Assembly (NCBI GenBank): GCA_040223695.1
Contig: JAVKFU010000015.1
Span: forward strand, 106,534-170,533
Direction of reading: 5' to 3'
DNA: 64,000 nt
Origin: Deltaproteobacteria bacterium
Lineage (GTDB): Bacteria > Desulfobacterota_D > UBA1144 > Nemesobacterales > UBA2774
Both the position numbers and the translations under genes were made by a program. How positions within the stretch are numbered: the first letter of the stretch is position 1; every line of letters begins with the position of its first letter. This document shows positions 3,511 through 56,167 of this stretch, piece by piece. The notes beneath the pieces were generated by a model, which did no database searches, was not told the origin of the DNA, and saw nothing but the letters and a program-made list of their open reading frames with translations.

Positions 3511-4455
3511 TCAAGCCGGTCTCTTCTCTCCGCCGGATGCAAATTCGGTGGCTTTATCTTCTTTATCATTCTCAGTTTCTGTGTTCTTTTTGCTGAAAAC
3601 CGTCTCCAGAGGCTCCTTGAATGTGAGTGTGCGATAAGGAAACGGAATCTCGATTCCGGCTTCGTCGAGCGCCCCTTTGACCGCGGCCACCACTTCGTCA
3701 CGGGACTTTCTGATCTCGAGCGGACTCGAACCGGTCCACCATGTAACTTCAAAATCTATGCTGCTCGCGCCGAAGGCCTGTGCGAATATCTGGACTTCCC
3801 TGCTGTTATCGACACTATCGAGGCCCTCGACAGCCTCCTTTATTACCGCCCTCGACTCATCGACATCCTCCCCGTAGGCAACTCCGCACATTACCGTAAT
3901 ACGCCTCAGATCAAGGTCCGTTCTGACCTGCACCGGGTTTTTAAACAACATTGCGTTCGGTATTACGATACGCTGACCGTCGACCCTTCTTATGTAGGTG
4001 TCACGAATGTTGATGTCTTCCACAAACCCTTCCATGCCCTCGCATTCTATGAAATCCCTCAATTGAAAAGGCTCTCGGAGCAGTATCAGTATTCCGGCGA
4101 GAAAGTTCTCGAATATATCCTTGAAAGCAAAACCTATCGCGATCGAACTCAAACCTATGACAGTCAGCAACTTAGCCGGCGTGAAATCGGGGAAAATGAT
4201 CACCGCAGCAACCATGACGCCAATAAGCCATATAAATATGTAGCTAAGTTTCCTGAATAATTCGGATAGTGAGTCGCGGAGCCTAATACGCCTGAAAAAA
4301 GAGTTCAGAACCCGGTCGACCAGGCGGTATATCAACCAGGTTATAAAAAGCACGATTAGCGCTATGAGAATTTTTGGAAGGTGGGCGAGAAAGCTTTCAC
4401 CCATCTTGGTCGCGCTTTCCAGAATGATATTTACAGGTTCCATAATGTTCTCCAT
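3511..4455 (-). CDS. Mechanosensitive ion channel protein, MscS family (tandem paralog).
   Basis: Same architecture and motifs as the neighbouring gene (FAFKDIFENFLAGILIL...IPNAMLFKNP). Confidence 0.8.
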   Translation of the reverse strand: MENIMEPVNIILESATKMGESFLAHLPKILIALIVLFITWLIYRLVDRVLNSFFRRIRLRDSLSELFRKLSYIFIWLIGVMVAAVIIFPDFTPAKLLTVIGLSSIAIGFAFKDIFENFLAGILILLREPFQLRDFIECEGMEGFVEDINIRDTYIRRVDGQRIVIPNAMLFKNPVQVRTDLDLRRITVMCGVAYGEDVDESRAVIKEAVEGLDSVDNSREVQIFAQAFGASSIDFEVTWWTGSSPLEIRKSRDEVVAAVKGALDEAGIEIPFPYRTLTFKEPLETVFSKKNTETENDKEDKATEFASGGEKRPA

Positions 4456-31415: not shown

Positions 31416-31976
31416 TCAGCCGGAGCTTTTAGGCAGCATCCAGGCTATAAGCGTGAAGACTACTGCGATTACGAGAGCGGTTGCAACGCCCGGAATACTA
31501 TCAACTATTACGGGATAGTCAGGGTTGGGAGTGAAAGCGATAGTGGAATCACCGGCGAGTATCCATTTGAAAATCCCCGTGCTCGATACCCTCCCGTGAA
31601 CAAGTATGTACATAAATGCCCCGCCGAGTCCTCCAATCACAAAAAATCCGGCGTCTTTTCTCCCCTCCCCGAGGGCGGCTACACCGGTTCCCGGACAGTA
31701 GCCTCCTACCGCCCATCCGAGTCCCATTATAAGACCCCCCGCGACTACGCCCCAGTGGGTTATCTCGACGGACAGGTGCGAAGGGTCTATGATCCCGAGC
31801 GTCACGCCGAGGAAGAGAAGCACACTCGCTACGGCTATACCGAACAGGGTCGTCTTCATGAGGTGAAAGTCTGTCAGCCTGAGCATATCTATAATCCTCT
31901 GCGGATTCGATGCTCCGACTCTGTGAAGTACGAAGCCGAAGAGCGTGCCTAGTATTACCGCGTACAATAAGTTCAT
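31416..31976 (-). CDS. YeeE/YedE family sulfur-compound transporter half-protein.
   Basis: Polytopic protein with the signature GGYCPGTG loop (DUF395). Confidence 0.65.
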   Translation of the reverse strand: MNLLYAVILGTLFGFVLHRVGASNPQRIIDMLRLTDFHLMKTTLFGIAVASVLLFLGVTLGIIDPSHLSVEITHWGVVAGGLIMGLGWAVGGYCPGTGVAALGEGRKDAGFFVIGGLGGAFMYILVHGRVSSTGIFKWILAGDSTIAFTPNPDYPVIVDSIPGVATALVIAVVFTLIAWMLPKSSG

Positions 31977-31989
31977 CTTGTCCCCTCGG

Positions 31990-32556
31990 TTATTTTCTTC
32001 CGTAAATCAGAATTGCCGCGGGAATCGCGACGGCAAAAGCCGCCATAGCGAAAAGGTATCCGCTTACGGAGGTCTGCATAATGCCGCTCACCATATGCCC
32101 GCTCGTGCTACCCCCTGCGAGCCTTGCTCCGAACAGCACGAGGCCGCCGCCCGTGAGAGCCGCCAGGTACCTCACTGCGGGGGAGTCCCCGAATCTGTTC
32201 CGCCACACCTCGGGGGCTGTTTTATCGCTCCGGGTTGCTTTGGGGCCTTTCGTAATGGAGGAGAGAAAAGCGCCTACAATAATGAACACTACGAATACGA
32301 AGCTATAGTTGAAGGGTTTCGCTATACTCTTGGCGTATTTCCCCCCGCTCTTGTTCAGGTATGAAATGGTGCTCGAATAGCCGGATTCTCTTCCGGGGTC
32401 TTCTTTGATGAGTTGCGGCGTACGTTTGCTCCATATGATTCCGTCAAGTATCACGAACTGGGTAGATACTCCTATCGGCTCTACCGCCCACACCGCCAGC
32501 ACGAATACGATACCCAGCGCAAGCCCGCCCCAAAACCAGTTTAGCTGTCCCGTCAT
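31990..32556 (-). CDS. YeeE/YedE family sulfur-compound transporter half-protein (partner of the downstream gene).
   Basis: Polytopic protein. The signature loop is GGSTSGHMVSG, a Ser-for-Cys variant of GGCTSGHG. Confidence 0.6.
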   Translation of the reverse strand: MTGQLNWFWGGLALGIVFVLAVWAVEPIGVSTQFVILDGIIWSKRTPQLIKEDPGRESGYSSTISYLNKSGGKYAKSIAKPFNYSFVFVVFIIVGAFLSSITKGPKATRSDKTAPEVWRNRFGDSPAVRYLAALTGGGLVLFGARLAGGSTSGHMVSGIMQTSVSGYLFAMAAFAVAIPAAILIYGRK

Positions 32557-32804: not shown

Positions 32805-33182
32805 TCACCCCCGTACCCACTCCATCGCCTCTTCCTTCTCCTCGAAAGAGAAGTGTCTGACCTCTATGTGGGGGAAGAGCCGGGAGGCGAATTTTACCCA
32901 GGTTTCTATCCAGCCCTTGTCGGAGACAACGGCCTCTTTCTCGAAGTCCCTCCAGTGCCTGAGATTAAAGTGTATGTCTTTCATGAGCGTGTTTACGGAC
33001 ATGCCGCCTACCTTTTCTACCTCCGCATATACGCGGAGCTTCTCGTGATTCTTCAGCTTTTCCTCGATCATGCCGAGAGCCTCGTCGAATTCCTCATCCT
33101 CGATACGGCCCTTCAGCCGGAACCCTATTATGTTCCCTTCCTCGAACGGAATAATTTCAAGCATGGTACCTCCCTGGTTCAC
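32805..33182 (-). CDS. SpoIIAA-like/STAS-fold protein (DUF3478-like).
   Basis: Small alpha/beta protein (EIIPFEEGNIIGFRLKGRIEDEEFDEA...). This is a fold-level call only. Confidence 0.4.
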   Translation of the reverse strand: MNQGGTMLEIIPFEEGNIIGFRLKGRIEDEEFDEALGMIEEKLKNHEKLRVYAEVEKVGGMSVNTLMKDIHFNLRHWRDFEKEAVVSDKGWIETWVKFASRLFPHIEVRHFSFEEKEEAMEWVRG

Positions 33183-33198: not shown

Positions 33199-33999
33199 TT
33201 AAGGAGTCGCCGATTTGCCGAGCTGGTTTTCGATGCAGTAGAGTGTCATGCGGTAGTCGTATGTATTCCCCTTCTTCCATACATTGCTGCAGCCCTGCAT
33301 CACATTTCTCTCTTTAGTGCCCGGCGGGTACATCTCAACCATCCTGTTTAGCCTGCCCATGGCTTCAGTCTGGTTCTTTGTGCAGTAGTCCTGCATCCTC
33401 TGGTCCCCAGGCCAGCTGCTTGCGCACATCTGCTGAATTTTGTTGTTCACGGTGGCAGCAGTTTGCTTGGATGTCGGCGCGGCTGCGGGTGCGGACGCGG
33501 GCCGGGAAATTAATTCATTTACCTTGCGGATTTTAGCGTCCGCCGATACGAGTTTTAGCCGTGCATTTTCCGACGTCTCGGCTTTTGTCCTATTCTCGGT
33601 CGCGGTGCATGCCCCAGCGTAGAGCTTGAGCCCTGTGGAGTAGTCGCCTATCGCCTCAAGCGCGGTCGATTGAACGGGCATCATTCTCGGCGGGGGCGCT
33701 ATCGAGCTTAGGCGCAGTCTGAGGGATTCCACTATTCCCTGATAGTATCCGAACTCGTAGGAGCACTTGTCGGTAGCCTCGGACTGAAGACCCACAGCGG
33801 TATTGGTTACGGTCTTTCCTACCTCCGACAGTTCGTAGAGAATCGGCGTAATCCCTTTCAGATATATTTTCTCTTTGTTTGTATAAGTATCGGCGCTTGC
33901 TTCTTCGGCAGAGAGAGAGCAGAATACGGTCGCCGTTATTAAAAATACAGACAGTAAAGATACGAGTACCCTTTTGTTAACAACCGTTAAAATATTCAT
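33199..33999 (-). CDS. Secreted protein of unknown function, paralog of 43011..44468.
   Basis: Signal peptide. The N-terminal block (EKIYLKGITPILYE...APPPRM...GDYSTGLKLYAGAC) and the Cys-rich C-terminal block (CASSWPGD..C....GNTYDYRMTLYC) are both shared with the distant paralog. Confidence 0.6.
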   Translation of the reverse strand: MNILTVVNKRVLVSLLSVFLITATVFCSLSAEEASADTYTNKEKIYLKGITPILYELSEVGKTVTNTAVGLQSEATDKCSYEFGYYQGIVESLRLRLSSIAPPPRMMPVQSTALEAIGDYSTGLKLYAGACTATENRTKAETSENARLKLVSADAKIRKVNELISRPASAPAAAPTSKQTAATVNNKIQQMCASSWPGDQRMQDYCTKNQTEAMGRLNRMVEMYPPGTKERNVMQGCSNVWKKGNTYDYRMTLYCIENQLGKSATP

Positions 34000-34384
34000 G
34001 GTGTATCTATCCTCCTTGTGGTTTTACGACTGCTCGACCGGACACCGGTCTTGATACGAGTATAAAATAAATTACATGATAAAGGGATAAGTTTTAAATA
34101 AATATTTCCTTTAAGCTCTTTTGCTTGAGCACGTATTCTGTAATATATTCACAACCTGTATTGACTGAATTCCAAATCCGGACGCCGTGATTCGCCTAGC
34201 TGATCTGACCCGCAAATTCCGGTTCCAATGTGTTTATTGAGTGTTTTAGGGTTATTATTATAAATATAAGGTCTAAATCTGCTTATAAAAGAAAAAGCCC
34301 GATCCCCATGTAAGTAATAAACATATCCGCTTGGAATCACCTCACTGTTTCGGCATTATGGGTCGGGAAGGGAGGGATTAAGAG

Positions 34385-35671
34385 ATGATAGCCGAGATTG
34401 AAAATCCGTCGAGAATAACTTCAGCCGAAATAGTTGTGGGTATTCCTTCGTACAATGAAGCGGATTCCATATATTTTCCCGTTGAGCAGGCCAGCAAGGG
34501 GCTCATGATTCACTACCCTCACAAGTCGTCGGTCATCGTGAATGTGGACAACTGCTCTCCCGACGGAACCAAAGACGCGTTCTTCAGCACGCCGACAAAA
34601 GTACCGAAAATTTATGCCTCCACTAAGGAGGGAGAAAAAGGTAAAGGCAGGAACGTTCATAATCTTCTTGAGATTTCAGCGGGTCTTGGCGCAAAGGCGG
34701 TAATACTCCTGGATGCAGACCTCAGGAGCCTCACGCCGCGCTGGATCAGATATTTTCTCGAGCCTCTGGAGGACGGCTATGACTTCGTGGTGCCTATATA
34801 CATGAGGCATAAGTACGACGGAACCATTACGAATAACATAGCTTATCCGCTTTTACGCACACTCTTCGGTTTACGCATCAGACAGCCCATAGCGGGTGAT
34901 TTCGCTATTTCAGGCAGGCTTGCGAACGCGTTCATGCTTGAGCCTACCTGGGACGAGTACGTTTGTAATTTCGGAATAGACATATGGATGACCATTGTAG
35001 CCATCAGCCGTAATTTCAAGGTCTGCCAGGCCTTTCTCGGCTCTTCAAAGACTCACCGTCCCAAGGATCCTGCGAGCGACCTAGGTCCTATGTTCTCACA
35101 GGTTGTGGGTTCTATATTCAATACGATCAAGACATTCGAGTATGTGTGGAAGAATATCGAAGAATCCCGGCCCAGCGTTATATACGGATTCGGTCTGGGG
35201 CAGTCGGGCGTAAAAGAAGAGGTGAAGGTCAGCACCAATCTGCTGCATAAATCATTTATAAACGGATTTGAGGACTACGGCGATATATGGCAGCAAGTGC
35301 TCATGCCCTCCAATATTCAGGTGCTTGACAGGCTGAGCCATTCAAGCCCCGATCAGCTTCATTACGAGGCTGACGAATGGGTAAAGGTTTTGTTTGATTT
35401 TGCGCTCGCCTCGATTTTCAACAAGGATATTGACAAGAACAAGCTGTTAGAGGCGCTTATCCCTCTTTATTATTCCTGCACTCTTTCGTTCGTGAACAAG
35501 GTCTCCTCGATGGACGACGCCGAAACCGAATTATATCTTGAGGATAGAGCCCGCAGGTTCGAGGAATCCAAGTACTATCTGATTGAGAGATGGAACCAGC
35601 TCACCAGGCACAACGGCAACAGGAGGCTCTATCAGATGCTCACCGGGAACAGGAACATAGTCGATGAGTGA
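34385..35671 (+). CDS. GT-A fold glycosyltransferase (family 2/81-like, possibly glucosyl/mannosyl-glycerate type).
   Basis: VVGIPSYNEADSI nucleotide-binding start and a DxD-like motif (LLDADLRSL). Confidence 0.5.
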   Translation: MIAEIENPSRITSAEIVVGIPSYNEADSIYFPVEQASKGLMIHYPHKSSVIVNVDNCSPDGTKDAFFSTPTKVPKIYASTKEGEKGKGRNVHNLLEISAGLGAKAVILLDADLRSLTPRWIRYFLEPLEDGYDFVVPIYMRHKYDGTITNNIAYPLLRTLFGLRIRQPIAGDFAISGRLANAFMLEPTWDEYVCNFGIDIWMTIVAISRNFKVCQAFLGSSKTHRPKDPASDLGPMFSQVVGSIFNTIKTFEYVWKNIEESRPSVIYGFGLGQSGVKEEVKVSTNLLHKSFINGFEDYGDIWQQVLMPSNIQVLDRLSHSSPDQLHYEADEWVKVLFDFALASIFNKDIDKNKLLEALIPLYYSCTLSFVNKVSSMDDAETELYLEDRARRFEESKYYLIERWNQLTRHNGNRRLYQMLTGNRNIVDE

Positions 35672-35962
35672 GTCGTTTTAGTGTTCCGGTGCTATTGTTA
35701 GCGCGTATATGAAGCACATAGTACAAGCAGGTGCTTTTCTGATCAATATCCGGAAAAATTTCCCTGTTAAAAAACCCTGCATTGTTGATTTATTCACAGA
35801 TGCTGCTGTTCGATTTCTTACAATTACATATAGTCCGAACATCTGGCTTTTTGTCTAATCCGCTGTCAAAACTCGCTTTATCCTTCTTCAATAATATGGC
35901 ACGCCTATTGCACTAACAATATAATAAGGAGCTTTTAAATTTACACATAGGAGGTAGTAATT

Positions 35963-36610
35963 ATGAAGAAGTTCATGACTTTAGCTGCGGTCGTCGTGAC
36001 GGCAGGAGCTTTGGGGCTCGGTGTTACGGGTTACGCAGATGATAACAAAACACAGTACGAGCAGCAGGACCAGCCTTATCACGATACACACCCTCACAAG
36101 AGCGATCAGATAATACAGCAGAAGAATAGACCGCATAATAGTGGTGATTCTATGCTGGATCAGCGGAATGAATCCGGGACCGACAGGGGGAATTATCAGA
36201 GCCGCCAGATGAGCCCTGATAACCGGAACTCATCCGGCAACGTCCAGGGAACAGTGACTCTGGTAGGCAATCGAGTAATAAATATTAGCGAGCCTAACGG
36301 AATGAAGCATCAGGTCAGGGTAAGCGAATCCCAGGAGAAAGCCATAACGACCGGATACAATATCAGTGCGGATATCAGGAACGGCAAGCTCGTTTCCTTC
36401 CAGGAGATGGGTGTTGCGCCTGATGTTAAGAATGTAGTTTATCAGTCTGAAAACTTGCCGGATATAAATGTACTGGAAAACCGGGGTACCGCGATACCTG
36501 GAGATGAGCCAATGATGAACCGGCAGCAGCCCGGAATGAATCAGGGTCAGCAGCCTGGCCAGGATATGCCTCGGGATCAGCATCAGGACCATATGATGGA
36601 TCAATATTAG
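35963..36610 (+). CDS. Secreted Gln/Asn/His-rich low-complexity protein of unknown function.
   Basis: Strong RBS (AGGAGG) and a Sec signal peptide (MKKFMTLAAVVVTAGALGLGVTGYA). The C-terminal Q/H/M-rich tail suggests possible metal binding. Confidence 0.5.
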   Translation: MKKFMTLAAVVVTAGALGLGVTGYADDNKTQYEQQDQPYHDTHPHKSDQIIQQKNRPHNSGDSMLDQRNESGTDRGNYQSRQMSPDNRNSSGNVQGTVTLVGNRVINISEPNGMKHQVRVSESQEKAITTGYNISADIRNGKLVSFQEMGVAPDVKNVVYQSENLPDINVLENRGTAIPGDEPMMNRQQPGMNQGQQPGQDMPRDQHQDHMMDQY

Positions 36611-36943
36611 TTGAAAATAAGAGAAATGAAAGTCTATGGCCGCCGAGCTCTTATCAGCCTGACCTGCTTCGTTAATCTATTCACGAAGCGGGCCTTTTAT
36701 ATACCCGTATGTCCTCCACAGGCGTGCGGGTTTTTTATTTTAGTAAAGCCGCATAAGATGCAAAGAATCTAACTGAATGGCTCTCGGAGGTTAGAATAAA
36801 GCGGGATTTGAAATTGCTATCTTTTGGTATATATTGATCTTGCCCCGCGGAATAATGGTTTCCTTCATTTACTGTACTCAGGTCTAGTTGCTCTTATTCA
36901 TTTCCGGTTTTCCGTTCGGGGTTTCCGTACTTTAAGGTTAATT

Positions 36944-37408
36944 ATGAAATATCTCGTTATCGCGGGCTTATTCTTTACATTGCTGACATCGTGCGTTGAA
37001 GTGGGTGATTCGGGCTCAAACCCTATACAGGGCGAGGTCGTAGTGAGAAGGGGGCTTACCGACTCTGAAATTGAAGTCTGGATAGAGCAGGCCGAGTGTA
37101 TGGAGTCCGAGAGCAAATCGAGAGCCGATATTGAGGACCTCGACGCGATCGAAGTACCCTTTGTCGATGAAATTACCATAAGAAAGGAACTTTCCTGCGG
37201 CGGGATTCCACCCGATAACCTTGTGGCCTGTCAGACGCAGAAGGAGATAGCGTTTCTTAACGGTCTGGATCAGGATACATTCCTGAGAGCGCTCAGGCAT
37301 GAGGAAATACATTTCATACTGTTTTTTTTGACCGGAAATAACGACAGAAATCACCGGAGTATATGGTTCGATCTCGAAGAAAGCCCCTGTCCCGAAACCG
37401 GTCTCTGA
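36944..37408 (+). CDS. Small lipoprotein with an HExxH motif (putative zinc-peptidase-like).
   Basis: The internal start MKYLVIAGLFFTLLTSC gives a lipoprotein signal. It has HEEIH near the C-terminus. The upstream 40 codons in the ORF track are probably not translated. Confidence 0.4.
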   Translation: MKYLVIAGLFFTLLTSCVEVGDSGSNPIQGEVVVRRGLTDSEIEVWIEQAECMESESKSRADIEDLDAIEVPFVDEITIRKELSCGGIPPDNLVACQTQKEIAFLNGLDQDTFLRALRHEEIHFILFFLTGNNDRNHRSIWFDLEESPCPETGL

Positions 37409-37481
37409 GAAGTATAATTATCTTACTCCCCTTAGATTTTAATAGGATCCGTCATACAGGGCGTTCCTGAGAGCTTCAATA

Positions 37482-38435
37482 TCAATCGTCAAGTTTTACG
37501 GGAGAGACAAACCCCTCGGGTTTAACCGTCAATACCGAGCAGTTCACCTGGTTCAGAACCGATTCCGCCGTGTTTCCAATTATTATCCCTGGAAGCCCCG
37601 TGCGGCAGAGAGTGCCCATTACGATGAGATCAATTTTCTCTTTCTTTGCGACTTTAGGAATTAGTAGAGACGGGTCCCCTTTGAGCAGGTGCACCCTGTA
37701 TTGTGTTTTTCCCATCCTTTTCCTGCTGAGGAGTTTATCAAGAGATTCCTGATGAAAACCTTTTTCAACCTTTATCAGTCTTTTCATCTCCGCCTCTGTC
37801 TTTCTGAAGCGCGGTCCGCGCAGAATGTTTTCCCCGAAGACGCTCCAGGCGTGAACAATGTGGAGCTCGCTGTCGTCGAGTTTTGATAATGAAAGGGCCA
37901 AATCCATTATAAGATCATTCAATCTGTCGGTTTTTTCGTCAAAGGGGTCTGGGTCAACCGCCGCCAGAATACGCGAATACTTATCCGCTTTGGAAGGTTT
38001 GACAATCCAGACCGGGGATGGACACTTGCGCATCAGGCTGATGTCGATACCTCCGAAGAACATTTTCCTTGTTCCGTCTTTTCCTTCTGCGGTTTTCATA
38101 ACGAGGTCGTGTTTGTTTCTGAGCACTTCCTTAATTATCTCGATATGGGGCTTTCCCGTTAATATTTTTACTTCGGCTTTAACCCGTATTCTTTTTTCAG
38201 TGCTTTTAATCAGATCTCTGATCTCCGAGGCTTTCTCTTCACAGGCTATCTTCTCGAATTCCTTAATCGGAACCTTGTCGATGTAATCCTCTGTCTTGGA
38301 GGGAATTTCCTCGAGTACGTATACTACGGTTAATCCGGCCTTGTTCTGTTTAGCCAGGGTGAAAGCCCGCTCAAGCGCTTCGCCGGCGCTGTCCCTTCCG
38401 TCATACGCTAAAAGTATTTTCCTGAATCTTTTCAT
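37482..38435 (-). CDS. Universal stress protein, tandem UspA domains (UspE-like).
   Basis: Two Usp repeats (ILLAYDGRDSAGEAL..., ILAAVDPDPFDEKTD...) with the ATP-binding G-x2-G-x9-G(S/T) motif region. Confidence 0.75.
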   Translation of the reverse strand: MKRFRKILLAYDGRDSAGEALERAFTLAKQNKAGLTVVYVLEEIPSKTEDYIDKVPIKEFEKIACEEKASEIRDLIKSTEKRIRVKAEVKILTGKPHIEIIKEVLRNKHDLVMKTAEGKDGTRKMFFGGIDISLMRKCPSPVWIVKPSKADKYSRILAAVDPDPFDEKTDRLNDLIMDLALSLSKLDDSELHIVHAWSVFGENILRGPRFRKTEAEMKRLIKVEKGFHQESLDKLLSRKRMGKTQYRVHLLKGDPSLLIPKVAKKEKIDLIVMGTLCRTGLPGIIIGNTAESVLNQVNCSVLTVKPEGFVSPVKLDD

Positions 38436-38656
38436 TGACTCTTCCGCCGCTTGTCAGAATTTTCTGATTGAATTTACTTGTTTGTCCGATTTTATCAAAT
38501 CGCGTATATGGTAAAGAGTTTACCTTTTCCGCAATTGCCTGATTGTTCATTCGAGAATCCCGTGCATGTTTCTTGACTCGCACCGCTCTTAGTGTAGCTT
38601 ATCATGAGATTTTTCTTGCCGGTACAATATCTAAGCTAAATGTATATATTAAAACT

Positions 38657-39757
38657 ATGGGACTGAAATGCGGAATAATAGGGCTTCCCAATGTGGGAAA
38701 GTCAACCCTTTTTAACGCGCTAACCAACGCGGGAGCGGAAGTCGGTAATTTCCCCTTTTGCACGATTGAGGATAACGTCGGGATAATTCCGGTAGCCGAC
38801 GACAGGCTTCACAGGATAGCGGAGCTGGTAAAGCCTCAGAAAATCACGCCGACCTACCTCGAAGTCGTCGATATAGCGGGGCTTGTAAAGGGGGCGTCCG
38901 AGGGGAAGGGCAGGGGGAACGCCTTTCTCGCGAGCATAAGGGAAGTTGATCTGATCCTTCACACTGTGCGCTGCTTTGAGGACGATAACGTAATGCACGT
39001 TGAGGGCTCTACGGATGCTCTCCGCGACATCCATATAATAGAGGACGAGCTTCTGCTCAAGGATTTAGAGACCGTTGAGAGGCGCGAGGAAAGGCTTCAG
39101 TCCCAGGCTAAGAGCGGGGATGTAAAAACAAAGGAAACGCTTGAGGTGGTAAAACGCCTGAGGGAATTTGTGGAGGAGGGCAACAAGGTCAGGAACTTCC
39201 CTTCGGACGGAGAAACCGGAAGGATTATAAAAGAGATGTATCTTCTGACCGGAATTCCCGTTCTCTATGTTTGCAACGTAGGCGAGGACGATATCCCTGA
39301 CGCCGCGGGCAACGAGGAAGTACGGAAAGTAAGGGATTATGCAGAAAAGAACGAATCGGATGTAATCGTCCTATCCGCTAAAATAGAGTCTGAAATTGCC
39401 GAGCTCCCGTACGAAGAGAAAAAAATGTTTCTAAGCGAGCTCGGGCTCGAGACCTCGGGACTCGACAGGCTGATAAAGGTAGCTTATGATAAACTCGGAC
39501 TAATAACCTTTTTTACCCAGGGGTCAAAGGAAGTCAGGGCGTGGACGCTCAGAAAGAACGTCAAGGCTCCTCAGGCGGCGGGCGCTATCCACTCCGACTT
39601 CGAGAGGGGGTTTATAAGGGCCGAAACGGCGTCGTATGACGACTTCGTTTCAGCGGGCTCCGAAGCCGCCCTCAAGGAGGCGGGCAAAATGAGGTCCGAA
39701 GGAAAAGAATACGTTGTAAAAGACGGGGACATACTGCTTTTCAGATTCAATGTATAA
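38657..39757 (+). CDS. ychF: Ribosome-binding ATPase YchF (Obg-family GTPase).
   Basis: G1 motif GLKCGIIGLPNVGKSTLFNALT, G-domain motifs and a C-terminal TGS domain (DFERGFIRAE..VKDGDILLFRFNV). The start is taken at the internal ATG with MGLKCG. Confidence 0.85.
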   Translation: MGLKCGIIGLPNVGKSTLFNALTNAGAEVGNFPFCTIEDNVGIIPVADDRLHRIAELVKPQKITPTYLEVVDIAGLVKGASEGKGRGNAFLASIREVDLILHTVRCFEDDNVMHVEGSTDALRDIHIIEDELLLKDLETVERREERLQSQAKSGDVKTKETLEVVKRLREFVEEGNKVRNFPSDGETGRIIKEMYLLTGIPVLYVCNVGEDDIPDAAGNEEVRKVRDYAEKNESDVIVLSAKIESEIAELPYEEKKMFLSELGLETSGLDRLIKVAYDKLGLITFFTQGSKEVRAWTLRKNVKAPQAAGAIHSDFERGFIRAETASYDDFVSAGSEAALKEAGKMRSEGKEYVVKDGDILLFRFNV

Positions 39758-40853
39758 AGAGATTGTAAGGCCCATTCTGAATAAGCTCGATTCCGAGACT
39801 TTTCACGACCTGGCGCGTGAGTCTCTCCACTTTGCCGAAATCTCCCCGATAACCCTAAAACTGGTTGAATTTTTTGCGCACACGCACAAGAGGTTCGCCG
39901 ACCCCAGGCTCAATGTTAATTTGGGCGGCGTCAGGTTCGAGAATCCGCTCATCGTAGGTGCGGGGTGGGATAAGGCCGGACGCGCGGTGCTGGCGCTGTG
40001 GCGCCTCGGCTTTGCGAGCGTGGAGGTAGGCTCCGTTCTCGAGTACAGGCAGCCCGGAAACCCGAAGCCGCGTCTTTTTATGGTCTCTGACGGCGTGGCT
40101 ATCAACTGGCTTGCGTTCAACAGTCCCGGCATGGATCTGGTGGCGAAGAATCTCGACCGCTACAAGGGGTCAGGCGTCCCGATAGGGATAAGCATAGGGC
40201 TCAACAGGGACGCGGACCAGGAATACGCCCCCGAGGCTTACGCCGCTGTGGCGAAGAGAATGTACGAATACGCGGATTATTACGCTATTAATATTAGCTC
40301 GCCCAATACGCCCGGGCTCAGGAATCTCCAGGCCAGGGAGAGCGGAAACGATATAATTCAGGCTGTGAACGAGTCTATGGACGGGGAAGGGGGGAGAAAG
40401 CCATTGTTCGTTAAAATCGCCCCCGAGCTCTCGTTTAAGGAAATCGACGACATCATAGAGATTGCGCTCGACCATTCGATTACCGGCATTATCGCCTCCA
40501 ATACCGCCAATGTTCCCGAGCTTAAGGCTAGGTACGGCGAGAGATGGAGGAATCAGATAGGCGGACTCAGCGGAGACGACGAAGAGTACAGGAGGATGAC
40601 TACCCGGCAAGTTGCGCACATATACAGGCAGGCGGGGGATAAGCTCGATATTATAGGCGTGGGGGGGATAAAGGACGCCGGGACCGCGCTTGAGAAAATC
40701 AGGGCGGGCGCGAAGGCGCTTCAGCTTGTCACGGCTATTCGCGGGGAAGGGCCGGGTGTGGCAGGTAAGATAAACATGGGGATTGCGGACTATATGTCCC
40801 GGCACGGAATCAAGTCAATAGACGAGATCGTCGGCATTGACGCTGGTAAATAA
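39750..40853 (+). CDS. pyrD: Dihydroorotate dehydrogenase (quinone), class 2.
   Basis: N-terminal membrane-association helix, GVRFENPLIVGAGWDKAG, NPKPRLF and FMN/orotate binding blocks. Confidence 0.8.
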   Translation: MYKEIVRPILNKLDSETFHDLARESLHFAEISPITLKLVEFFAHTHKRFADPRLNVNLGGVRFENPLIVGAGWDKAGRAVLALWRLGFASVEVGSVLEYRQPGNPKPRLFMVSDGVAINWLAFNSPGMDLVAKNLDRYKGSGVPIGISIGLNRDADQEYAPEAYAAVAKRMYEYADYYAINISSPNTPGLRNLQARESGNDIIQAVNESMDGEGGRKPLFVKIAPELSFKEIDDIIEIALDHSITGIIASNTANVPELKARYGERWRNQIGGLSGDDEEYRRMTTRQVAHIYRQAGDKLDIIGVGGIKDAGTALEKIRAGAKALQLVTAIRGEGPGVAGKINMGIADYMSRHGIKSIDEIVGIDAGK

Positions 40854-40931
40854 ACTTCCCGAAGTTTTGTAGTACTACTCGCTCGGATAAAGTAGAGCTC
40901 GCTTTAGCTTATTTTACTTGCCGGTTAAAAG

Positions 40932-42110
40932 TTACGTTCTGTACTGAGCGTTTATTTTCAGATACTCAAACGTAATATCGCTCGTGATTACAAAGGAGCT
41001 TGCCCTGCCTGATTTGAGGTCGAGCGTAATCGTAAATTCTGGCTTCTTCATAACCCGCTCAGCCTTTTTCTCGTCCATCACATCCCTCGAGTTGCTGAGA
41101 ACCTTCAGGTCCCCGAAATATAGGTCGATTTTATCGGGATTGAAGCTAACCCCAGCTCTGCCCGCAGCGGCTACAATCCTCCCCCAGTTGGGGTCTTCGC
41201 CGTAAAAAGCGCTTTTCACGAGAAGTGAGGTTCCAAGAGTGCGCGCCATGCTCTCTGCGTCTTTTTCGTTATTTGCGCCTTTGACCACAATCTTAACCGT
41301 CTTCGTAGCCCCTTCTCCGTCTTTGACTATCATCCTCGCGACCTCGGTCGATGCTTCGGTGACGGCCTGCTCGAACTTCCTGTATTCCGCCCCGCTTTCA
41401 TTTACAGCCCGGTTTCCGAGCTTGCCGCTTGATAGCATCAGAACCGTGTCGTTAGTCGACGTGTCGCCGTCCACAATTATTTTATTGAAGGAGTTCCGGA
41501 CGGCATTCCTGAGAGCCTTTGACAATGCCCTCTTCCCGACATTTATATCCGTAAGCACATACGCCAGCATGGTCGCCATATTGGGCATAATCATCCCCGC
41601 GCCCTTGCCTATTACTGCGATAGTTCCGGTTTTGCCGCCGACTTTCAGCTTTATTGATGCGTATTTTGGAAACGCGTCTGTTGTCATTATCGCTTCTGCC
41701 GTATCCACGAATCCGTCTTCCCTGAGCTCGGAGACTAGCCCGGGCAGGGCCTTCTTTATCTTGTCTGTAGGGAGGGGGCCTCCTATAAGCCCTGTGGACG
41801 AGGGTATGACCAGGTTCTCGTCTATTCCCAGTTTTTCTGCTACGTAACGCGAGGTTGCAATCGCGTCCCTCATTCCCCTTTTTCCGGTAAACGCGTTTGC
41901 CACTCCGCTGTTTACGAGTACCGCCTGACAGTATCCGCTTTTGATGCGTTCCATTCCGAGGACCACAGGGGGCGCCTTGACTATGTTCAGAGTAAAGACT
42001 CCCGCCGCCTTCGCGGGGGTTTCCGAGAATATCAAAGCGAGGTCTTTCCTGCCGTTCTTTTTAATACCTGAAGAAACCCCGCTTCCCAGAAATCCGGGAA
42101 CTTTTGTCAT
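40932..42110 (-). CDS. argJ: Bifunctional glutamate N-acetyltransferase/amino-acid N-acetyltransferase ArgJ.
   Basis: ArgJ family blocks (FLGSGVSSGIKKNGRKDLALIFS and the ATMLAYVLTD autoprocessing site). The start is at the ATG overlapping the recO stop. The upstream 62 codons in the ORF track are spurious. Confidence 0.85.
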   Translation of the reverse strand: MTKVPGFLGSGVSSGIKKNGRKDLALIFSETPAKAAGVFTLNIVKAPPVVLGMERIKSGYCQAVLVNSGVANAFTGKRGMRDAIATSRYVAEKLGIDENLVIPSSTGLIGGPLPTDKIKKALPGLVSELREDGFVDTAEAIMTTDAFPKYASIKLKVGGKTGTIAVIGKGAGMIMPNMATMLAYVLTDINVGKRALSKALRNAVRNSFNKIIVDGDTSTNDTVLMLSSGKLGNRAVNESGAEYRKFEQAVTEASTEVARMIVKDGEGATKTVKIVVKGANNEKDAESMARTLGTSLLVKSAFYGEDPNWGRIVAAAGRAGVSFNPDKIDLYFGDLKVLSNSRDVMDEKKAERVMKKPEFTITLDLKSGRASSFVITSDITFEYLKINAQYRT

Positions 42111-42814
42111 ATTGTTAACTCCTCTATGAATTTTGATGATTTCAATTCCTTTTCCGTATGGAATTCTGTGAATTTTGTAAACAGCTTTATGTACTTTAGG
42201 ACTTTTGCGAGGTGTATTTCCATAGTCGCTCTGTCGCTCAGGAATTCCCTTGATACACGGAATCCGTTTTGCGCTCCGCCTGTGCAGTCCCCGCATATTA
42301 CGCCGCCCTTACTCAGGCTAAACAGGGCATCCCCCTCTATCTGTTTTCCGCATTCTGCGCATATTCCGAGGTTGGGTTCGTATCCCGATATTGTAAGCGC
42401 TTTCAGCTGGAATGAAAGAACGGCCGGGAGAATACTTTTTCCGGAGTCGAGTTCGCTCAGGGTTTCAACCAGAAGCTCGAACAGCTCTTCCGCGGGAGAC
42501 TCGTCGGGCAGCAGGCTGTCGACCGTCTCGAGTATAAAACTGCCCCAGAGAAAGAGTTCTATATTCTCCATGAGATGATGGAATACCCTTACTGTCTCTG
42601 CATCTTCTACGAATCGCATATCCCTCGATTTGTCCCTGAATCTGACCCGAAAGCACACGAAAGGTTCAAGCCTTCCGCCGAAGCGCTTTTTACTCCTTTT
42701 CGCGTTTTTTGCAAAACCCCTGATTTTCCCGAAATCCCGAGTGAAGAGGGTGATTATATAGTCTGCGTCACCGTGGAGGGTTTTACGGATCAAGAAAGCC
42801 TCTGTGCTGTTCAT
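42107..42814 (-). CDS. recO: DNA repair protein RecO.
   Basis: N-terminal OB-fold block (EAFLIRKTLHGDADYIITLFTRDFGKIRGFAKN) and a C4 zinc finger (CAECGKQ...CGDC). Confidence 0.8.
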   Translation of the reverse strand: MNSTEAFLIRKTLHGDADYIITLFTRDFGKIRGFAKNAKRSKKRFGGRLEPFVCFRVRFRDKSRDMRFVEDAETVRVFHHLMENIELFLWGSFILETVDSLLPDESPAEELFELLVETLSELDSGKSILPAVLSFQLKALTISGYEPNLGICAECGKQIEGDALFSLSKGGVICGDCTGGAQNGFRVSREFLSDRATMEIHLAKVLKYIKLFTKFTEFHTEKELKSSKFIEELTI

Positions 42815-43010
42815 GATGCGGATATTATTACTAAAAAAGCGGTCTTTAGCGAATTATTGGAACCGGGAATTCCATTGCTCTTTCATATATAAGGCTGTAT
42901 TTATCAGGACTCGACGGATATTTTTACTAGGGGAATGGAACTGCGTATTTTATAATACTATTTTATGATTTGAATTTCTCGCGGATTATGAGGGTGATGG
43001 AATCTGAATT

Positions 43011-44468
43011 ATGGGGGTGTTTTATATGTTGAAGCCAAGTTTTACTGCCTGCAAAAGGCTCGTTTTATTACTCGTATCCGCTGGTATCCTGACGTTTATT
43101 CCGTTCGGACCGGAGTTGATCCGGGAGTCGCGAGCCGCGGATAATTACAGCGCCGCCGAAAAGGTATATTTGAAAAACATTACGCCCGGCCTGTACGAGT
43201 TCTCACAAATAGCAGCCCTGGTGAGCGAATCGATTCTCACGCTTCAGTCGTCTCCCGCCGAAGAGTGCGAGGGGCAATTTGCGTATTACGGAGGATTGGT
43301 CAGTTCGCTCAAAAAACAGCTGGGCACTGTGAGCGCGCCGCCGAGAATGGAATCAGTACACCGGGACTCTCTACAATCCCTTGCCGATTACGAGACGGGG
43401 CTCATACTTTACGGGGAGGCCTGTGTCGAGGAAGATTACGGAATGAAAGAGGGCCTGGTGAGCCGCGGAGGGGATTATATAAACGATTCTGTGGGAAGAA
43501 TTGGCAGGGTCTATGCTGAAATCGACAATTTGAAAACCGCTCAAGTGCCACGAAGTCAGGATCAAGCTGTGGTGGAAGACGGGGCTGATTTTGAAGAGAC
43601 CCTAAGTGCCGGGACCGGGACCGGTGTTTCGGAGAAGGATGAGACAGCCGCTTATATAAAAACAAGGGAAGAGGTAATAGACGAGATTTCCCGGCGAGTG
43701 GAGACGGAAAAGGATACATCTACTGCCGCCGAACCGGTATCTTCTGGGCATGAACGTACTGTTCCTGAAACTACCGCGTCCGAGTACTCACGGTCGAAAA
43801 CTGCGACGCCTGAAGCTGCCGTTCCGCCTGTCAAGCCTCGGGAGACCGGTGCGCGGGAGGTAGCTCCGCCTGCCCCTGAGCCTGTTGTGGATGACGCGGA
43901 TGAAAAAACCGGAAGCAAGGTCGAGAGTGAGGACTTGGCACAGAAAGAGGACATGGAGTCCAATCGGAAAGAAAATATGGCCGGAGAGGAAAAGACGAAT
44001 GACGAAACGGAGAGAATAGAAAAGATTGAAAAGATGAATCAGGCAATAATGCAGAGGGGGACGGAAAGCCAGGAAATACCGGAAGGAAGAGTTAAGGAGC
44101 GCGAAGCTCCCGCTTCAGGCGTGAATAGATCTGCCGCCCCCGAGATTGCCGCCGCCGGGCCCGAGACTCTGGAGCGTGGACAATCCGGAACACCTGCTCC
44201 TCCCGATGAAATAAAATCGTGGTGCGCGTCGAAAGTGTATTCTGAGGAAGAAATGGCGAATTGTATCAGGCGCCGTACGGAGGCTAAGGAGAATGTCGAA
44301 CGTATGGTTAAAGCTTCCCCTGACGGAACCGAGAGAAGGAAAATCCTTGAAAAGTGTAAGTCCGACTGGAAGGAGGGGGATACTTACAACTATGATATGG
44401 TCCTGTCATGCGTGCAATTCTTCTGTGCCCGGAAGGGAATAGATAGTTGTGAGCAAATGGCGAGATAA
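43011..44468 (+). CDS. Secreted protein of unknown function, long paralog of 33199..33999 with an expanded E/K/A/P-rich linker.
   Basis: Shares the N-terminal block (EKVYLKNITPGLYE...APPRM...ADYETGLILYGEAC) and the C-terminal Cys block (WCASKVYSEEEMANC....GDTYNYDMVLSC) with 33199..33999. A Sec-type signal is present. Confidence 0.6.
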   Translation: MGVFYMLKPSFTACKRLVLLLVSAGILTFIPFGPELIRESRAADNYSAAEKVYLKNITPGLYEFSQIAALVSESILTLQSSPAEECEGQFAYYGGLVSSLKKQLGTVSAPPRMESVHRDSLQSLADYETGLILYGEACVEEDYGMKEGLVSRGGDYINDSVGRIGRVYAEIDNLKTAQVPRSQDQAVVEDGADFEETLSAGTGTGVSEKDETAAYIKTREEVIDEISRRVETEKDTSTAAEPVSSGHERTVPETTASEYSRSKTATPEAAVPPVKPRETGAREVAPPAPEPVVDDADEKTGSKVESEDLAQKEDMESNRKENMAGEEKTNDETERIEKIEKMNQAIMQRGTESQEIPEGRVKEREAPASGVNRSAAPEIAAAGPETLERGQSGTPAPPDEIKSWCASKVYSEEEMANCIRRRTEAKENVERMVKASPDGTERRKILEKCKSDWKEGDTYNYDMVLSCVQFFCARKGIDSCEQMAR

Positions 44469-44488: not shown

Positions 44489-44974
44489 TCAATCGGTTCC
44501 GACGGCGTGCTCAAGACAGCTCCGCAGCATGACCATTTGATCGTACGCCAGTTTCTGACCGGCAAGAGCAAGACCGTAAGCCGCCGCTAACAAGACTACC
44601 GAAGCCGGAACGAGCCAGAATCCGTATGCGTTCATGCCTAGATACCACTGGCAGAGTCCGAGGATGAGGCCAGCTAATCCTAAAAGGACCGCGAGGCCGT
44701 AAAAAGCGGCGAACATCGTCCATACCACCGGGCGCGGCCCGAGCACGCATCTGATGACTGTATCACCGTCTTCCTCCTCAAATTCGAGACCCAGTTCAGG
44801 GGACCAGAAGTGCAGGTCCTCTTTCCTTACGCCGATAACAACAACGGGTTTGACGAACTTTCCCCTGCATTCGGAGTCCGGCTCTTGCAGTTCATTCTTT
44901 AGCCTTCTTATTGCCTCTTGTTTCCCGTACGGAACCGACAACGTAAATCTGGGACGGATTTCGACTTTATTCAT
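44489..44974 (-). CDS. Hypothetical membrane protein (soluble N-domain plus 2 TM helices).
   Basis: ORF with a hydrophobic C-terminal half. No recognisable family. Confidence 0.35.
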   Translation of the reverse strand: MNKVEIRPRFTLSVPYGKQEAIRRLKNELQEPDSECRGKFVKPVVVIGVRKEDLHFWSPELGLEFEEEDGDTVIRCVLGPRPVVWTMFAAFYGLAVLLGLAGLILGLCQWYLGMNAYGFWLVPASVVLLAAAYGLALAGQKLAYDQMVMLRSCLEHAVGTD

Positions 44975-53931: not shown

Positions 53932-54095
53932 AGCGTGTAAATTTGTAATCACTGTAATATTAATACTTTGACCAACTATTATTAATTTATCCTATCCACT
54001 ATAGTATTGACTATCTGATTGTAATTCATATACAATCGAAATAAGAATTACTATATTTTTATCTTATTGTTATATCATGTGAGTAAGAGTCACAG

Positions 54096-55763
54096 ATGAT
54101 TAAAAGTATTCGGCTAAAATTCGGTAGGGCTCTAGGTCTGCCAGCAGAAGTTATTAGTACGACACCGGTAACCGTGTTTGTAGGCCCTAATAATTCGGGG
54201 AAAAGTAAAGTCTTAGATGAGATAAATCAATTTTGTCGCAATGGGCAAAAAAATAATTTAAATTTGATACTTGACCAAATTGAATTTGAGTCTTTCTCCG
54301 AACAAGTTGCTGAAATTAAAATAAAAAATAATTTGCTCACACCTAAACTTGGTGAATCTGTTTATTCCGATCATATAATAATTGGAAAGAAAGGTGTACG
54401 AAATCAGGTAAACAAGAAACAATTACTTGAAGCGTTCGCAAACCCAAATGCTAGGTCCCAACAATTTTGTCCTTGGTATTTAGCTTTTAATACTCTTATT
54501 CTAGATGGGAAAAATAGAATTAATCTCATAAATGAACAAGAAGCTGGTGATTTACAACATCCCCAAACCAGTTTTCAGGTTTTATTTTCGGATGATTCAA
54601 AGAGACAAGAAGTCAGAAGGATTATATTCGATGCTTTTGGCTATTATTTTGTAATTGATCCTACAAAGTTAGGACGTTTTAGGCTGAGGCTGGCATACTA
54701 TTATCCACAAGACATAAGGCAAGAGCGAGGTATTGATGAAGAAGCTGTGTCCTACCATTCAAAGGCCATGCCTATAGACGCGACGAGTGATGGGGTCAAA
54801 GCATTTACTGGTATTATAACTGAGATAATTGCTGGTGATCCGGTTGTATTATTGATTGACGAGCCAGAAGCATTTTTACATCCTGCCCTATCTTTCAAAT
54901 TAGGAAAAGAAATCGCTCGAGCTAGTTCTAAGTCTGAAAAAAGACTTTTCATTTCAACACATAGTACTAATTTTGTCATGGGATGTATTCAATCAGGCGC
55001 ACCAGTGACTATTGTAAGATTAACTTACCGTAACAGTTCTGCTACTGCTAGAATACTGCCACAAGATGATATTTTGAGGTTGATGAGGAATCCATTGTTA
55101 AGATCAACAGGGGTTTTGGCAGGACTTTTTTATGAATTTATAGTTGTTACTGAGTCCGATTCAGACCGTGCCTTTTATCAAGAAATTAATGAACGTTTAA
55201 TTTTGAATGATCCTGATAGAGGGATACCAAATTGTTTATTTTTAAATGCACAGAATAAACAAACAATACACACAATTATACGCCCTTTGCGAGAGCTGGG
55301 TATACCTGCCGCCGGAATTATAGATATAGATATAATAAAAGATGGTGGATCTGTCTGGACGAATTTTCTAAAGTCCGGTTTTGCGCCAGAGCTTGAACAT
55401 GCTTCACTTGCCTCACTACGAAGTTCAGTAAAGAAAAAATTTGAAGAAACTGGAAAAGATATGAAACGTGATGGTGGAGTTTCTGTTCTAAGTCCAACTG
55501 ACAAGGAAGCAGCCAATAATCTGTTTGACAAATTAGCTGATTATGGTCTCTTTGTTGTACGCAAGGGGGAATTGGAATCATGGCTGCCTGGGCTCCAAGG
55601 TGTGGGCCATGGTTCTGACTGGCTTATAGATATATTTGAAAAAATGGGTGAAGATCCCAGCTTGCCTAATTATATGAAGCCCAGTACCAATGACGTATGG
55701 GAATTTGTTGGGCAAATTAAGCACTGGTTGACAAATGCAAATAGAAAAGGAATTCCGTCGTAG
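54096..55763 (+). CDS. OLD-family ATP-dependent nuclease (ABC-type ATPase plus Toprim), class 1-like stand-alone.
   Basis: Walker A GPNNSGKS. Walker B/H-loop LLIDEPEAFLHP. C-terminal Toprim-like acidic motifs (FIVVTESDSDRAF, GIIDIDII). The gene is about 36% GC, against about 50% in neighbours, with AT-rich flanks. Confidence 0.6.
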   Translation: MIKSIRLKFGRALGLPAEVISTTPVTVFVGPNNSGKSKVLDEINQFCRNGQKNNLNLILDQIEFESFSEQVAEIKIKNNLLTPKLGESVYSDHIIIGKKGVRNQVNKKQLLEAFANPNARSQQFCPWYLAFNTLILDGKNRINLINEQEAGDLQHPQTSFQVLFSDDSKRQEVRRIIFDAFGYYFVIDPTKLGRFRLRLAYYYPQDIRQERGIDEEAVSYHSKAMPIDATSDGVKAFTGIITEIIAGDPVVLLIDEPEAFLHPALSFKLGKEIARASSKSEKRLFISTHSTNFVMGCIQSGAPVTIVRLTYRNSSATARILPQDDILRLMRNPLLRSTGVLAGLFYEFIVVTESDSDRAFYQEINERLILNDPDRGIPNCLFLNAQNKQTIHTIIRPLRELGIPAAGIIDIDIIKDGGSVWTNFLKSGFAPELEHASLASLRSSVKKKFEETGKDMKRDGGVSVLSPTDKEAANNLFDKLADYGLFVVRKGELESWLPGLQGVGHGSDWLIDIFEKMGEDPSLPNYMKPSTNDVWEFVGQIKHWLTNANRKGIPS

Positions 55764-55870
55764 TATTATATTCTTTTATTAAGTGTGGGTTTCAAAATTC
55801 TCAAAATCTCCAATTACCCCTTGAAATCCGGCAATTAACCCTTATATTATCCCTGATTAACAATTAAGGC

Positions 55871-56167
55871 ATGGGGTGCAAAATGTTAAATACGGACAAT
55901 TTAGCCCATACGGGCACTAAGTTCTCACGCAGCATATATATCGGGAAGATCAAGAAAACAACCTTGAGCAAGCCCGTCGATGCCCTTAATGTCGGAGAGC
56001 AGGAGCAGTATTCATGCCTCTCCGAGCAGATGAAGTGGGGCAAGGAGCACGGATACAACCTGGTTCTTACCCGTGACAGTAGCGAGATAGACTGCTGGAT
56101 GATAAGAGATTCGTCAATGGACGATCTAAACCCGCTCTTCAAGAAAACGATACTCCAAGTTTTCTGA
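55871..56167 (+). CDS. Hypothetical 98-aa protein downstream of the OLD nuclease.
   Basis: ORF with no recognisable domain. Confidence 0.35.
   Translation: MGCKMLNTDNLAHTGTKFSRSIYIGKIKKTTLSKPVDALNVGEQEQYSCLSEQMKWGKEHGYNLVLTRDSSEIDCWMIRDSSMDDLNPLFKKTILQVF

Follow-up and report, generated by a model that had tools for sequence, protein, structure and literature searches.

The 64-kb window analysed here (64,000 nucleotides of contig JAVKFU010000015.1, from a genome labelled as a Deltaproteobacteria bacterium) contains two open reading frames (ORFs) whose products were presented, in a preliminary description made from the letters alone, as dispersed paralogs of a secreted two-domain protein. ORF A (33199..33999, minus strand) encodes the short paralog, pA, of 266 amino acids (aa), and ORF B (43011..44468, plus strand) encodes the long paralog, pB, of 485 aa. 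Both ORFs were confirmed, and the two genes lie about 9 kb apart. The true start of pB is probably the ATG at 43026 (the second methionine, giving 480 aa) rather than 43011, since that is where the NCBI gene model and the orthologs begin. The parts of the two proteins are as follows.

33199..33999, minus strand: whole pA coding sequence including the stop codon, 266 aa; an exact match to NCBI RIG61_04820, 'hypothetical protein'
33892..33999, minus strand: predicted pA signal peptide, residues 1-36; K9/R10, best 12-residue Kyte-Doolittle mean (KD12) of 2.73, AxA motif aligned with the AEA of orthologs
33502..33891, minus strand: pA N-domain, residues 37-166; predicted four-helix bundle with invariant C79 and C131
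33454..33501, minus strand: pA variable linker, residues 167-182; about 16 aa, rich in P, A, T and Q, its length varying in the alignment
33202..33453, minus strand: pA C-module, residues 183-266; two units of about 35 aa, the first holding C192/C206 and the second C237/C255, aligned with 34 standalone homologs
43011..44468, plus strand: maximal pB ORF, 485 aa; corresponds to NCBI RIG61_04865, 'hypothetical protein' (480 aa, from 43026), which like RIG61_04820 lies on a 770-kb contig of a metagenome-assembled genome
43026..43136, plus strand: predicted pB signal peptide, residues 6-42; K15/R16, KD12 of 2.65, cleavage after S-R-A42
43137..43535, plus strand: pB N-domain, residues 43-175; predicted four-helix bundle with invariant C86 and C138, isoelectric point (pI) 4.5, aligned with pA by BLASTP and hhalign
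43536..44192, plus strand: pB acidic low-complexity linker, residues 176-394; net charge about -22, with two conserved islands
44193..44465, plus strand: pB C-module, residues 395-485; unit 1 degenerate (C405/C418), unit 2 canonical (C449/C467), and an extra pair C472/C480

Pairwise alignment, which had been proposed as the check on the relationship, recovers both of the shared domains at statistically significant levels. By BLASTP the N-terminal block (residues 9-131 of pA and 15-138 of pB) has 41% identity over 124 aa with E=1e-29, and the C-terminal, cysteine-containing block (residues 186-257 and 399-469) has 36% identity over 72 aa with E=2e-15; profile-profile comparison of the short and long ortholog families with hhalign gives E=9.1e-46 for the N-domain. 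No third copy was found when the window was searched with both proteins by tblastn. The proteins pA and pB are ancient paralogs, each of two domains, and their family has so far been seen in Dadabacteria-type genomes alone.

The earlier statement that the proteins match no family holds for Pfam, NCBIfam and the PDB. The best Pfam or NCBIfam match to pA or pB has E=0.12, far below curated cut-offs, no family recurs meaningfully when 45 short-family and 36 C-module members are scanned individually, and a short-family profile finds nothing among PDB sequences. A search of PHROGs gave no match to pA or pB, and neither family nor profile searches detected an enzyme family or catalytic motif in them. 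Membership of the LprI/DUF1311 type of periplasmic helical cysteine proteins was rejected for want of a match to the PF07007 hidden Markov model (HMM), and a limited literature search on Dadabacteria returned nothing relevant to these proteins.

Export signals, cysteines and the N-terminal bundle

The N-termini of both ortholog families have one to five K/R residues and a hydrophobic core, with a best 12-residue Kyte-Doolittle mean of 2.5-3.5. An AxA-type site lies a few residues ahead of the conserved mature start; short-family members have AEA or ASA there, and long-family members SRA, SQA or SLA. For pA, cleavage is predicted after A-S-A36, with an alternative site after S-L-S-A31, and the S-x-A cleavage site of pB is kept in 12 orthologs. 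The signal peptides first proposed for both ORFs thus have Sec-type features that are conserved in 45 short-family and 13 long-family sequences, and because such N-termini are conserved in both families, export of pA and pB is likely. A lipoprotein reading of either protein was rejected, as no lipobox is conserved, nor is Cys27 of pA.

Cysteines C79, C131, C192, C206, C237 and C255 are invariant in the short family (45 sequences), as are C86, C138, C405, C418, C449 and C467 in the long family, together with the extra pair C472/C480 (13 sequences). Neither the N-domain pair nor the extra C-terminal pair of the long form featured in the preliminary description. The even number and invariance of the cysteines, their helix-end positions in the structural models and the export signals together suggest that the pairs form structural intradomain disulfides. 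The invariant cysteine pattern therefore fits the earlier proposal of a disulfide-stabilised extracytoplasmic module, while the disulfides themselves, and a periplasmic location for pA and pB, are what we infer.

An AlphaFold2 model of pA, built from the 45-sequence alignment, is all-alpha with a mean predicted local distance difference test score (pLDDT) of 76, and consists of a four-helix bundle (helices 41-72, 76-98, 104-131 and 136-165) and a second helical domain. C79 opens helix 2 and C131 closes helix 3, and a C79-C131 disulfide is plausible because the helix topology would put both at the same end of the bundle. The N-domain carries two motifs, PPPR(M/L) and GDYxxGLxLYxxAC, and as judged from sequence is restricted to the Dadabacteria-type lineage.

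The segments that join the two domains differ greatly between the paralogs. In the AlphaFold2 model pA residues 169-182 have pLDDT <50 and are disordered. The pB linker of about 220 aa is composed of 17% E, 12% A, 9% T, 8% P and 8% S, with a net charge of -22, and contains two conserved islands, KT.EEVI.EIS and KEKIEKLNQKIM. Among the orthologs of the long family it ranges from 208 to 321 aa and from -6 to -50 in net charge, E making up 15-23%, followed by A, P and then T, V, S or K depending on the ortholog. The initial account of a linker of about 230 aa rich in E, K, A, P and T is therefore right as to a long, variable, acidic segment rich in E, A, P and T, but K is not among the most enriched residues. 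A tandem-repeat origin of the pB linker was considered and rejected, as there are no meaningful tandem repeats at the DNA level. The paralogs are also split by charge: the C-module is basic in the short family (pI 8.4-9.4, n=44), and in the long family has a pI of 4.6-6.8, with an N-domain pI of 4.6-5.8 (n=11). This electrostatic split could reflect different partners, or a heteromeric interaction of pA with pB.

The two-cysteine hairpin module

A phmmer search with pA against 1.84 billion cluster representatives gave 392 matches at E<=1e-3. About 20 of the best 150 span the N-domain, and nearly all the others cover only residues ~165-262, which correspond to the C-module. The module is spread over more than 300 unrelated protein clusters (at 50% identity), where typical relatives are about 100 aa long and consist of a signal peptide and the module. 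Others have three or four half-units, or bear the module at the C-terminus of a different exported or anchored protein, the fusion partners including a zinc ribbon with a transmembrane segment (P0068), DUF4124, an SLH fragment and domains without a name.

The two halves of the C-module align with each other (hhalign probability 98.3%, E=1.1e-14), and the module is therefore a duplicated two-cysteine hairpin of about 35 aa. Each unit follows the pattern I-x2-C-x3-W-x(2-9)-[DN]-[YFW]-x-M-x3-C-x3-Q and is all helical, and the two-unit consensus is I-x2-C-A-x2-W-P-x-D-Y-x-M-Q-x-Y-C-x3-Q … R-C-x3-W-x(3-9)-D-x2-M-V-x-Y-C-x3-Q, in which the four cysteines and the second tryptophan are invariant in a 36-sequence alignment. 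Both pA units are canonical; unit 1 of pB has lost the tryptophan and one residue. The extra cysteine pair of the long family lies in an invariant motif, FFCxxxGIxxC, at the C-terminus. Modelled alone with AlphaFold2, the C-module has a pLDDT of 91.9 and shows four helices with a small beta-hairpin ahead of the last helix.

We refer to exported proteins with at least two units of this pattern as the CW-hairpin family, to which both pA and pB belong. Counted by motif in 150 unrelated matches, two units are present in 90, three in 24 and four in 22. Since odd numbers occur, each unit would be self-contained, presumably with one disulfide per hairpin. The breadth of these matches indicates that the C-module is a widespread, uncurated extracytoplasmic module that is not specific to pA and pB, and its exported contexts (signal peptides, anchors, DUF4124, SLH) fit a reusable extracytoplasmic interaction module.

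None of the 36 C-module members has a match in Pfam, NCBIfam or PDB sequences. Eight of the 36, all standalone proteins, match phrog_25501, an unannotated phage family (best E=2e-5), which the C-domains of pA and pB do not match. This phage family probably models the same hairpin module and, having no annotation, adds no functional knowledge. A homolog search with the C-module profile gave only 10 short-contig matches, none with a name, and a cluster look-up returned nothing beyond 'hypothetical protein'.

Individual copies of the module were found in a variety of genomic settings. One (locus L016, 2116-2430) adjoins an integrase, a Peptidase_M78 gene and a SIR2+HerA pair; another (L017, 6001-6876) lies between integrases, Bro-N and SMODS; a third (L022, ~3830-4188) is in an IMG/VR provirus beside a tape-measure gene; and a further copy is at L023, 5026-5481. 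These copies, standalone or arrayed, are in mobile or defence settings of unrelated bacteria. A degenerate DNA pattern of the module matched two IMG/VR contigs, and the copy at L018 is chromosomal, among housekeeping genes. With tblastn, the module sequences had no match among GenBank phages or PLSDB plasmids.

Conservation and genomic setting

In a large protein collection the short form has 46 further relatives with 52-78% identity, most of them 244-290 aa long (two are shorter fragments), and the long form has eight, of 468-581 aa; no relative of either carries a functional name. A scan of one genome per species yielded 15 related loci, all in metagenome-assembled genomes labelled as Candidatus Dadabacteria, Thermodesulfobacteriota, delta proteobacterium or 'uncultured'. 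When the window's neighbouring genes were mapped onto these loci, the gene order proved fixed, running MgtE, pB (opposite strand), RecO, ArgJ, PyrD, YchF, (USP), a 154-aa lipoprotein, one variable gene, pA, a SpoIIAA-like/STAS protein (PF11964) and GNAT, and no locus of sufficient length lacks either paralog. The duplication is therefore older than the diversity of the sampled lineage, and the fixed positions show both to be stably inherited chromosomal genes rather than mobile cargo. Even at only 38% identity, homologs of the short paralog still precede the STAS gene and have a divergent GT2 glycosyltransferase gene upstream, as in the window.

The neighbour immediately downstream of pA is the following.

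32805..33182, minus strand: SpoIIAA-like/STAS protein (PF11964); Pfam E=3e-27, probable start ATG 33164

Wherever a locus reaches far enough, this gene is the one that directly follows the pA ortholog. In the window its start is about 34 nucleotides past the pA stop, on the same strand (about 30-40 nucleotides across the loci), and a terminator scan found no terminator-like site between the two. Because of the shared strand and the short gap the two genes may be co-transcribed. A cytoplasmic STAS protein is in this way consistently paired with an exported one. A role in Mla-like lipid trafficking, which the STAS neighbour prompted us to consider, was rejected, as the neighbour's PF11964 domain is not of the MlaB type and there is no adjacent MlaE, MlaF or MlaD. 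The pB gene is monocistronic, between the divergent recO and convergent genes. As the neighbours of both paralogs are cytoplasmic housekeeping proteins or have no assigned role, they offer no evidence by association. Promoter and terminator scans around pA and pB gave no regulatory clue, and neither a riboswitch nor any other Rfam element was found between 30 and 47 kb of the window.

Several other features of the window deserve mention. The gene at 36944..37408 (plus strand) encodes a 154-aa protein in which both a lipobox (LLTSC) and the HExxH motif (RHEEIHFILF) are found, has no Pfam match, and is kept next to ychF in all 15 Dadabacteria-type loci with 64-72% identity; its product is a candidate small lipoprotein metallopeptidase from a family not yet described. 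A split YeeE/YedE-type sulfur-transport pair, made of two halves of about 187 aa, is inserted between the genes for STAS and GNAT (31416..32556, minus strand); it is also found downstream in a distant relative (L019) and is absent from most Dadabacteria loci. At 35963..36610 (plus strand) is a secreted protein of 215 aa, rich in Q, N, H and D and without a Pfam match, the position being occupied in other loci by a different secreted ORF of 233 aa. A predicted membrane protein of 161 aa (44489..44974, minus strand), also without a Pfam match and like the preceding gene lineage-variable, is encoded between pB and mgtE; none of the 15 related loci gave a match to it, and L001 has too little space between mgtE and the long paralog for any gene. 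Farther away, at 54096..55763 (plus strand), is a 555-aa OLD-family protein (AAA_21/AAA_15 ATPase with an OLD-like TOPRIM domain), whose gene falls within a dip in GC content at 54001-56000 (0.37 versus ~0.49) and which is probably a horizontally acquired defence-type nuclease.

Proposed roles and comparison with known systems

The reading that we tentatively favour is a composite one, in which pA and pB would be exported by Sec with cleavage of the signal peptide and would act as disulfide-locked binding and adaptor proteins of the periplasm or envelope. A non-enzymatic role is favoured because there is no catalytic signature. One disulfide would lie across the top of the bundle and one would staple each hairpin, with one more in the long form. 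The reusable C-module could provide docking or self-association, and the N-terminal bundle a lineage-specific binding surface. The paralogs would then be specialised both by reach, pA being compact whereas pB has a long, flexible, acidic spacer, and by charge, the C-module being basic in one and acidic in the other, such that they might serve different partners or different distances within the envelope.

Another explanation, which we consider unlikely without dismissing it, is that the C-module works in the periplasm as a small inhibitor or immunity-type protein, locked by disulfides and directed for example against a lytic enzyme, a toxin or a phage receptor, the Dadabacteria versions having become chromosomally fixed with an extra domain. 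Small exported disulfide-bonded prophage proteins are often exclusion or inhibitor proteins, standalone secreted versions of about 100 aa dominate the module family, the L016, L017 and L022 copies are in mobile or defence settings, and the matches to phrog_25501 among the standalone members point the same way. However, the mobile contexts examined number three, and the fourth member is the chromosomal L018 copy; GenBank phages and PLSDB plasmids gave no match; and the C-domains of pA and pB are themselves outside phrog_25501. The two genes are moreover vertically inherited and syntenic, with no target enzyme encoded near either.

The architecture of pB also raises the idea of a periplasm-spanning tether or molecular ruler, which seems to us decidedly doubtful. 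In such a model pB would link two envelope layers through its globular ends and an acidic spacer of ~220-320 aa, with pA as a compact counterpart or competitor. A linker that is disordered, rich in E, A, P and T, and variable yet always long between two conserved ends is what such a function would call for, both genes are conserved throughout the lineage, and the opposite charges of the paralogs would allow them to interact with each other. The conserved signal-peptidase-type site speaks against a membrane anchor, however, and there is no lipobox, no match to an OmpA, Pal, TonB_C, TolA or peptidoglycan-binding domain, and no conservation of linker sequence outside the two short islands.

We regard as improbable a third explanation, that of a ligand-binding N-domain: like chemoreceptor and kinase 4HB sensors or apolipoprotein-type bundles, it would take up a small molecule or lipid and pass this ligand, or its signal, to a membrane partner. 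Least probable, and very unlikely in our estimation, is that the cysteines are functional, as metal ligands or redox-active thiols of a periplasmic metallochaperone or thiol-disulfide relay: six to eight are invariant and a single site could in principle bring together the four of the C-module, but CxxC and CxxCH motifs are absent (cysteines are spaced C-x13-C and C-x17-C), no histidine is conserved alongside them, and the autonomy of the two-cysteine unit, with its odd copy numbers, fits a staple in each hairpin and not a four-cysteine site.

A bolder extension, which we offer as a long shot, is that the CW-hairpin is the founding member of a new and widespread extracytoplasmic domain superfamily with a fold not in the PDB, carried by prophages and integrative elements as a small secreted accessory protein and fused in other bacteria to a range of exported proteins. 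Dadabacteria would have combined it with a lineage-specific four-helix bundle in a charge-complementary short and long pair, forming an envelope component that defines the lineage, for example a tether or ruler.

The proteins pA and pB constitute a genuine, undescribed family of an ordinary kind, being exported, all-alpha and cysteine-stabilised with a disordered linker, and as uncharacterised lineage-specific secreted proteins are common the significance of the pair is modest. Dadabacteria, an uncultured lineage of phylum level, are common in marine, sponge and soil samples. An exported pair whose genomic positions stay fixed throughout the lineage can reasonably serve as its marker and as a way into the study of its envelope. 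Of more use is a by-product, the definition of a two-cysteine hairpin module that is widespread and uncatalogued, as cataloguing it would annotate many small secreted proteins now called 'hypothetical'.

Among known systems, the periplasmic bundles of 4HB_MCP/Tar-type proteins, LytS-N, DUF3829 and PsbQ/CyanoQ have the up-down four-helix fold in common with the N-domain, with only 5-15% sequence identity. Designed bundles score higher, so the likeness is one of topology and not of homology; the cysteine pair and the PPPR(M/L) and GDYxxGLxLYxxAC motifs of pA and pB are not described for any of them. In 4HB_MCP-type sensors the bundle lies between two transmembrane helices and is coupled to a cytoplasmic signalling module, whereas pA and pB have a single hydrophobic segment, at the N-terminus, with an AxA site after it and, beyond the bundle, a linker and cysteine module with no signalling output domain and no Pfam match. 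Membership of the 4HB_MCP sensors was rejected, as there is no second transmembrane segment, output domain or HMM match.

With TonB/TolA-type proteins pB shares a long low-complexity spacer, rich in E, A, P and T (K), between functional ends. It differs in having a predicted cleavable signal peptide instead of a transmembrane anchor and in matching neither the TonB_C nor the TolA HMM, and its linker is strongly acidic and free of tandem repeats where TonB/TolA-type spacers are made of EP/KP repeats; a TonB/TolA-like assignment was thus set aside for lack of an anchor and of a matching C-domain. Membership of the small Tim or CHCH families was likewise rejected, as two CX3C (or CX9C) motifs on antiparallel helices are not present in the C-module. 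To the 4HB_MCP, small Tim/CHCH, TonB/TolA and LprI/DUF1311 families alike, pA and pB bear a likeness of overall design only. The small Tim proteins (Tim9/Tim10/Tim8/Tim13) have twin CX3C motifs and CHCH proteins twin CX9C motifs, whereas the cysteines of the hairpin module are spaced as C-x13-C and C-x17-C.

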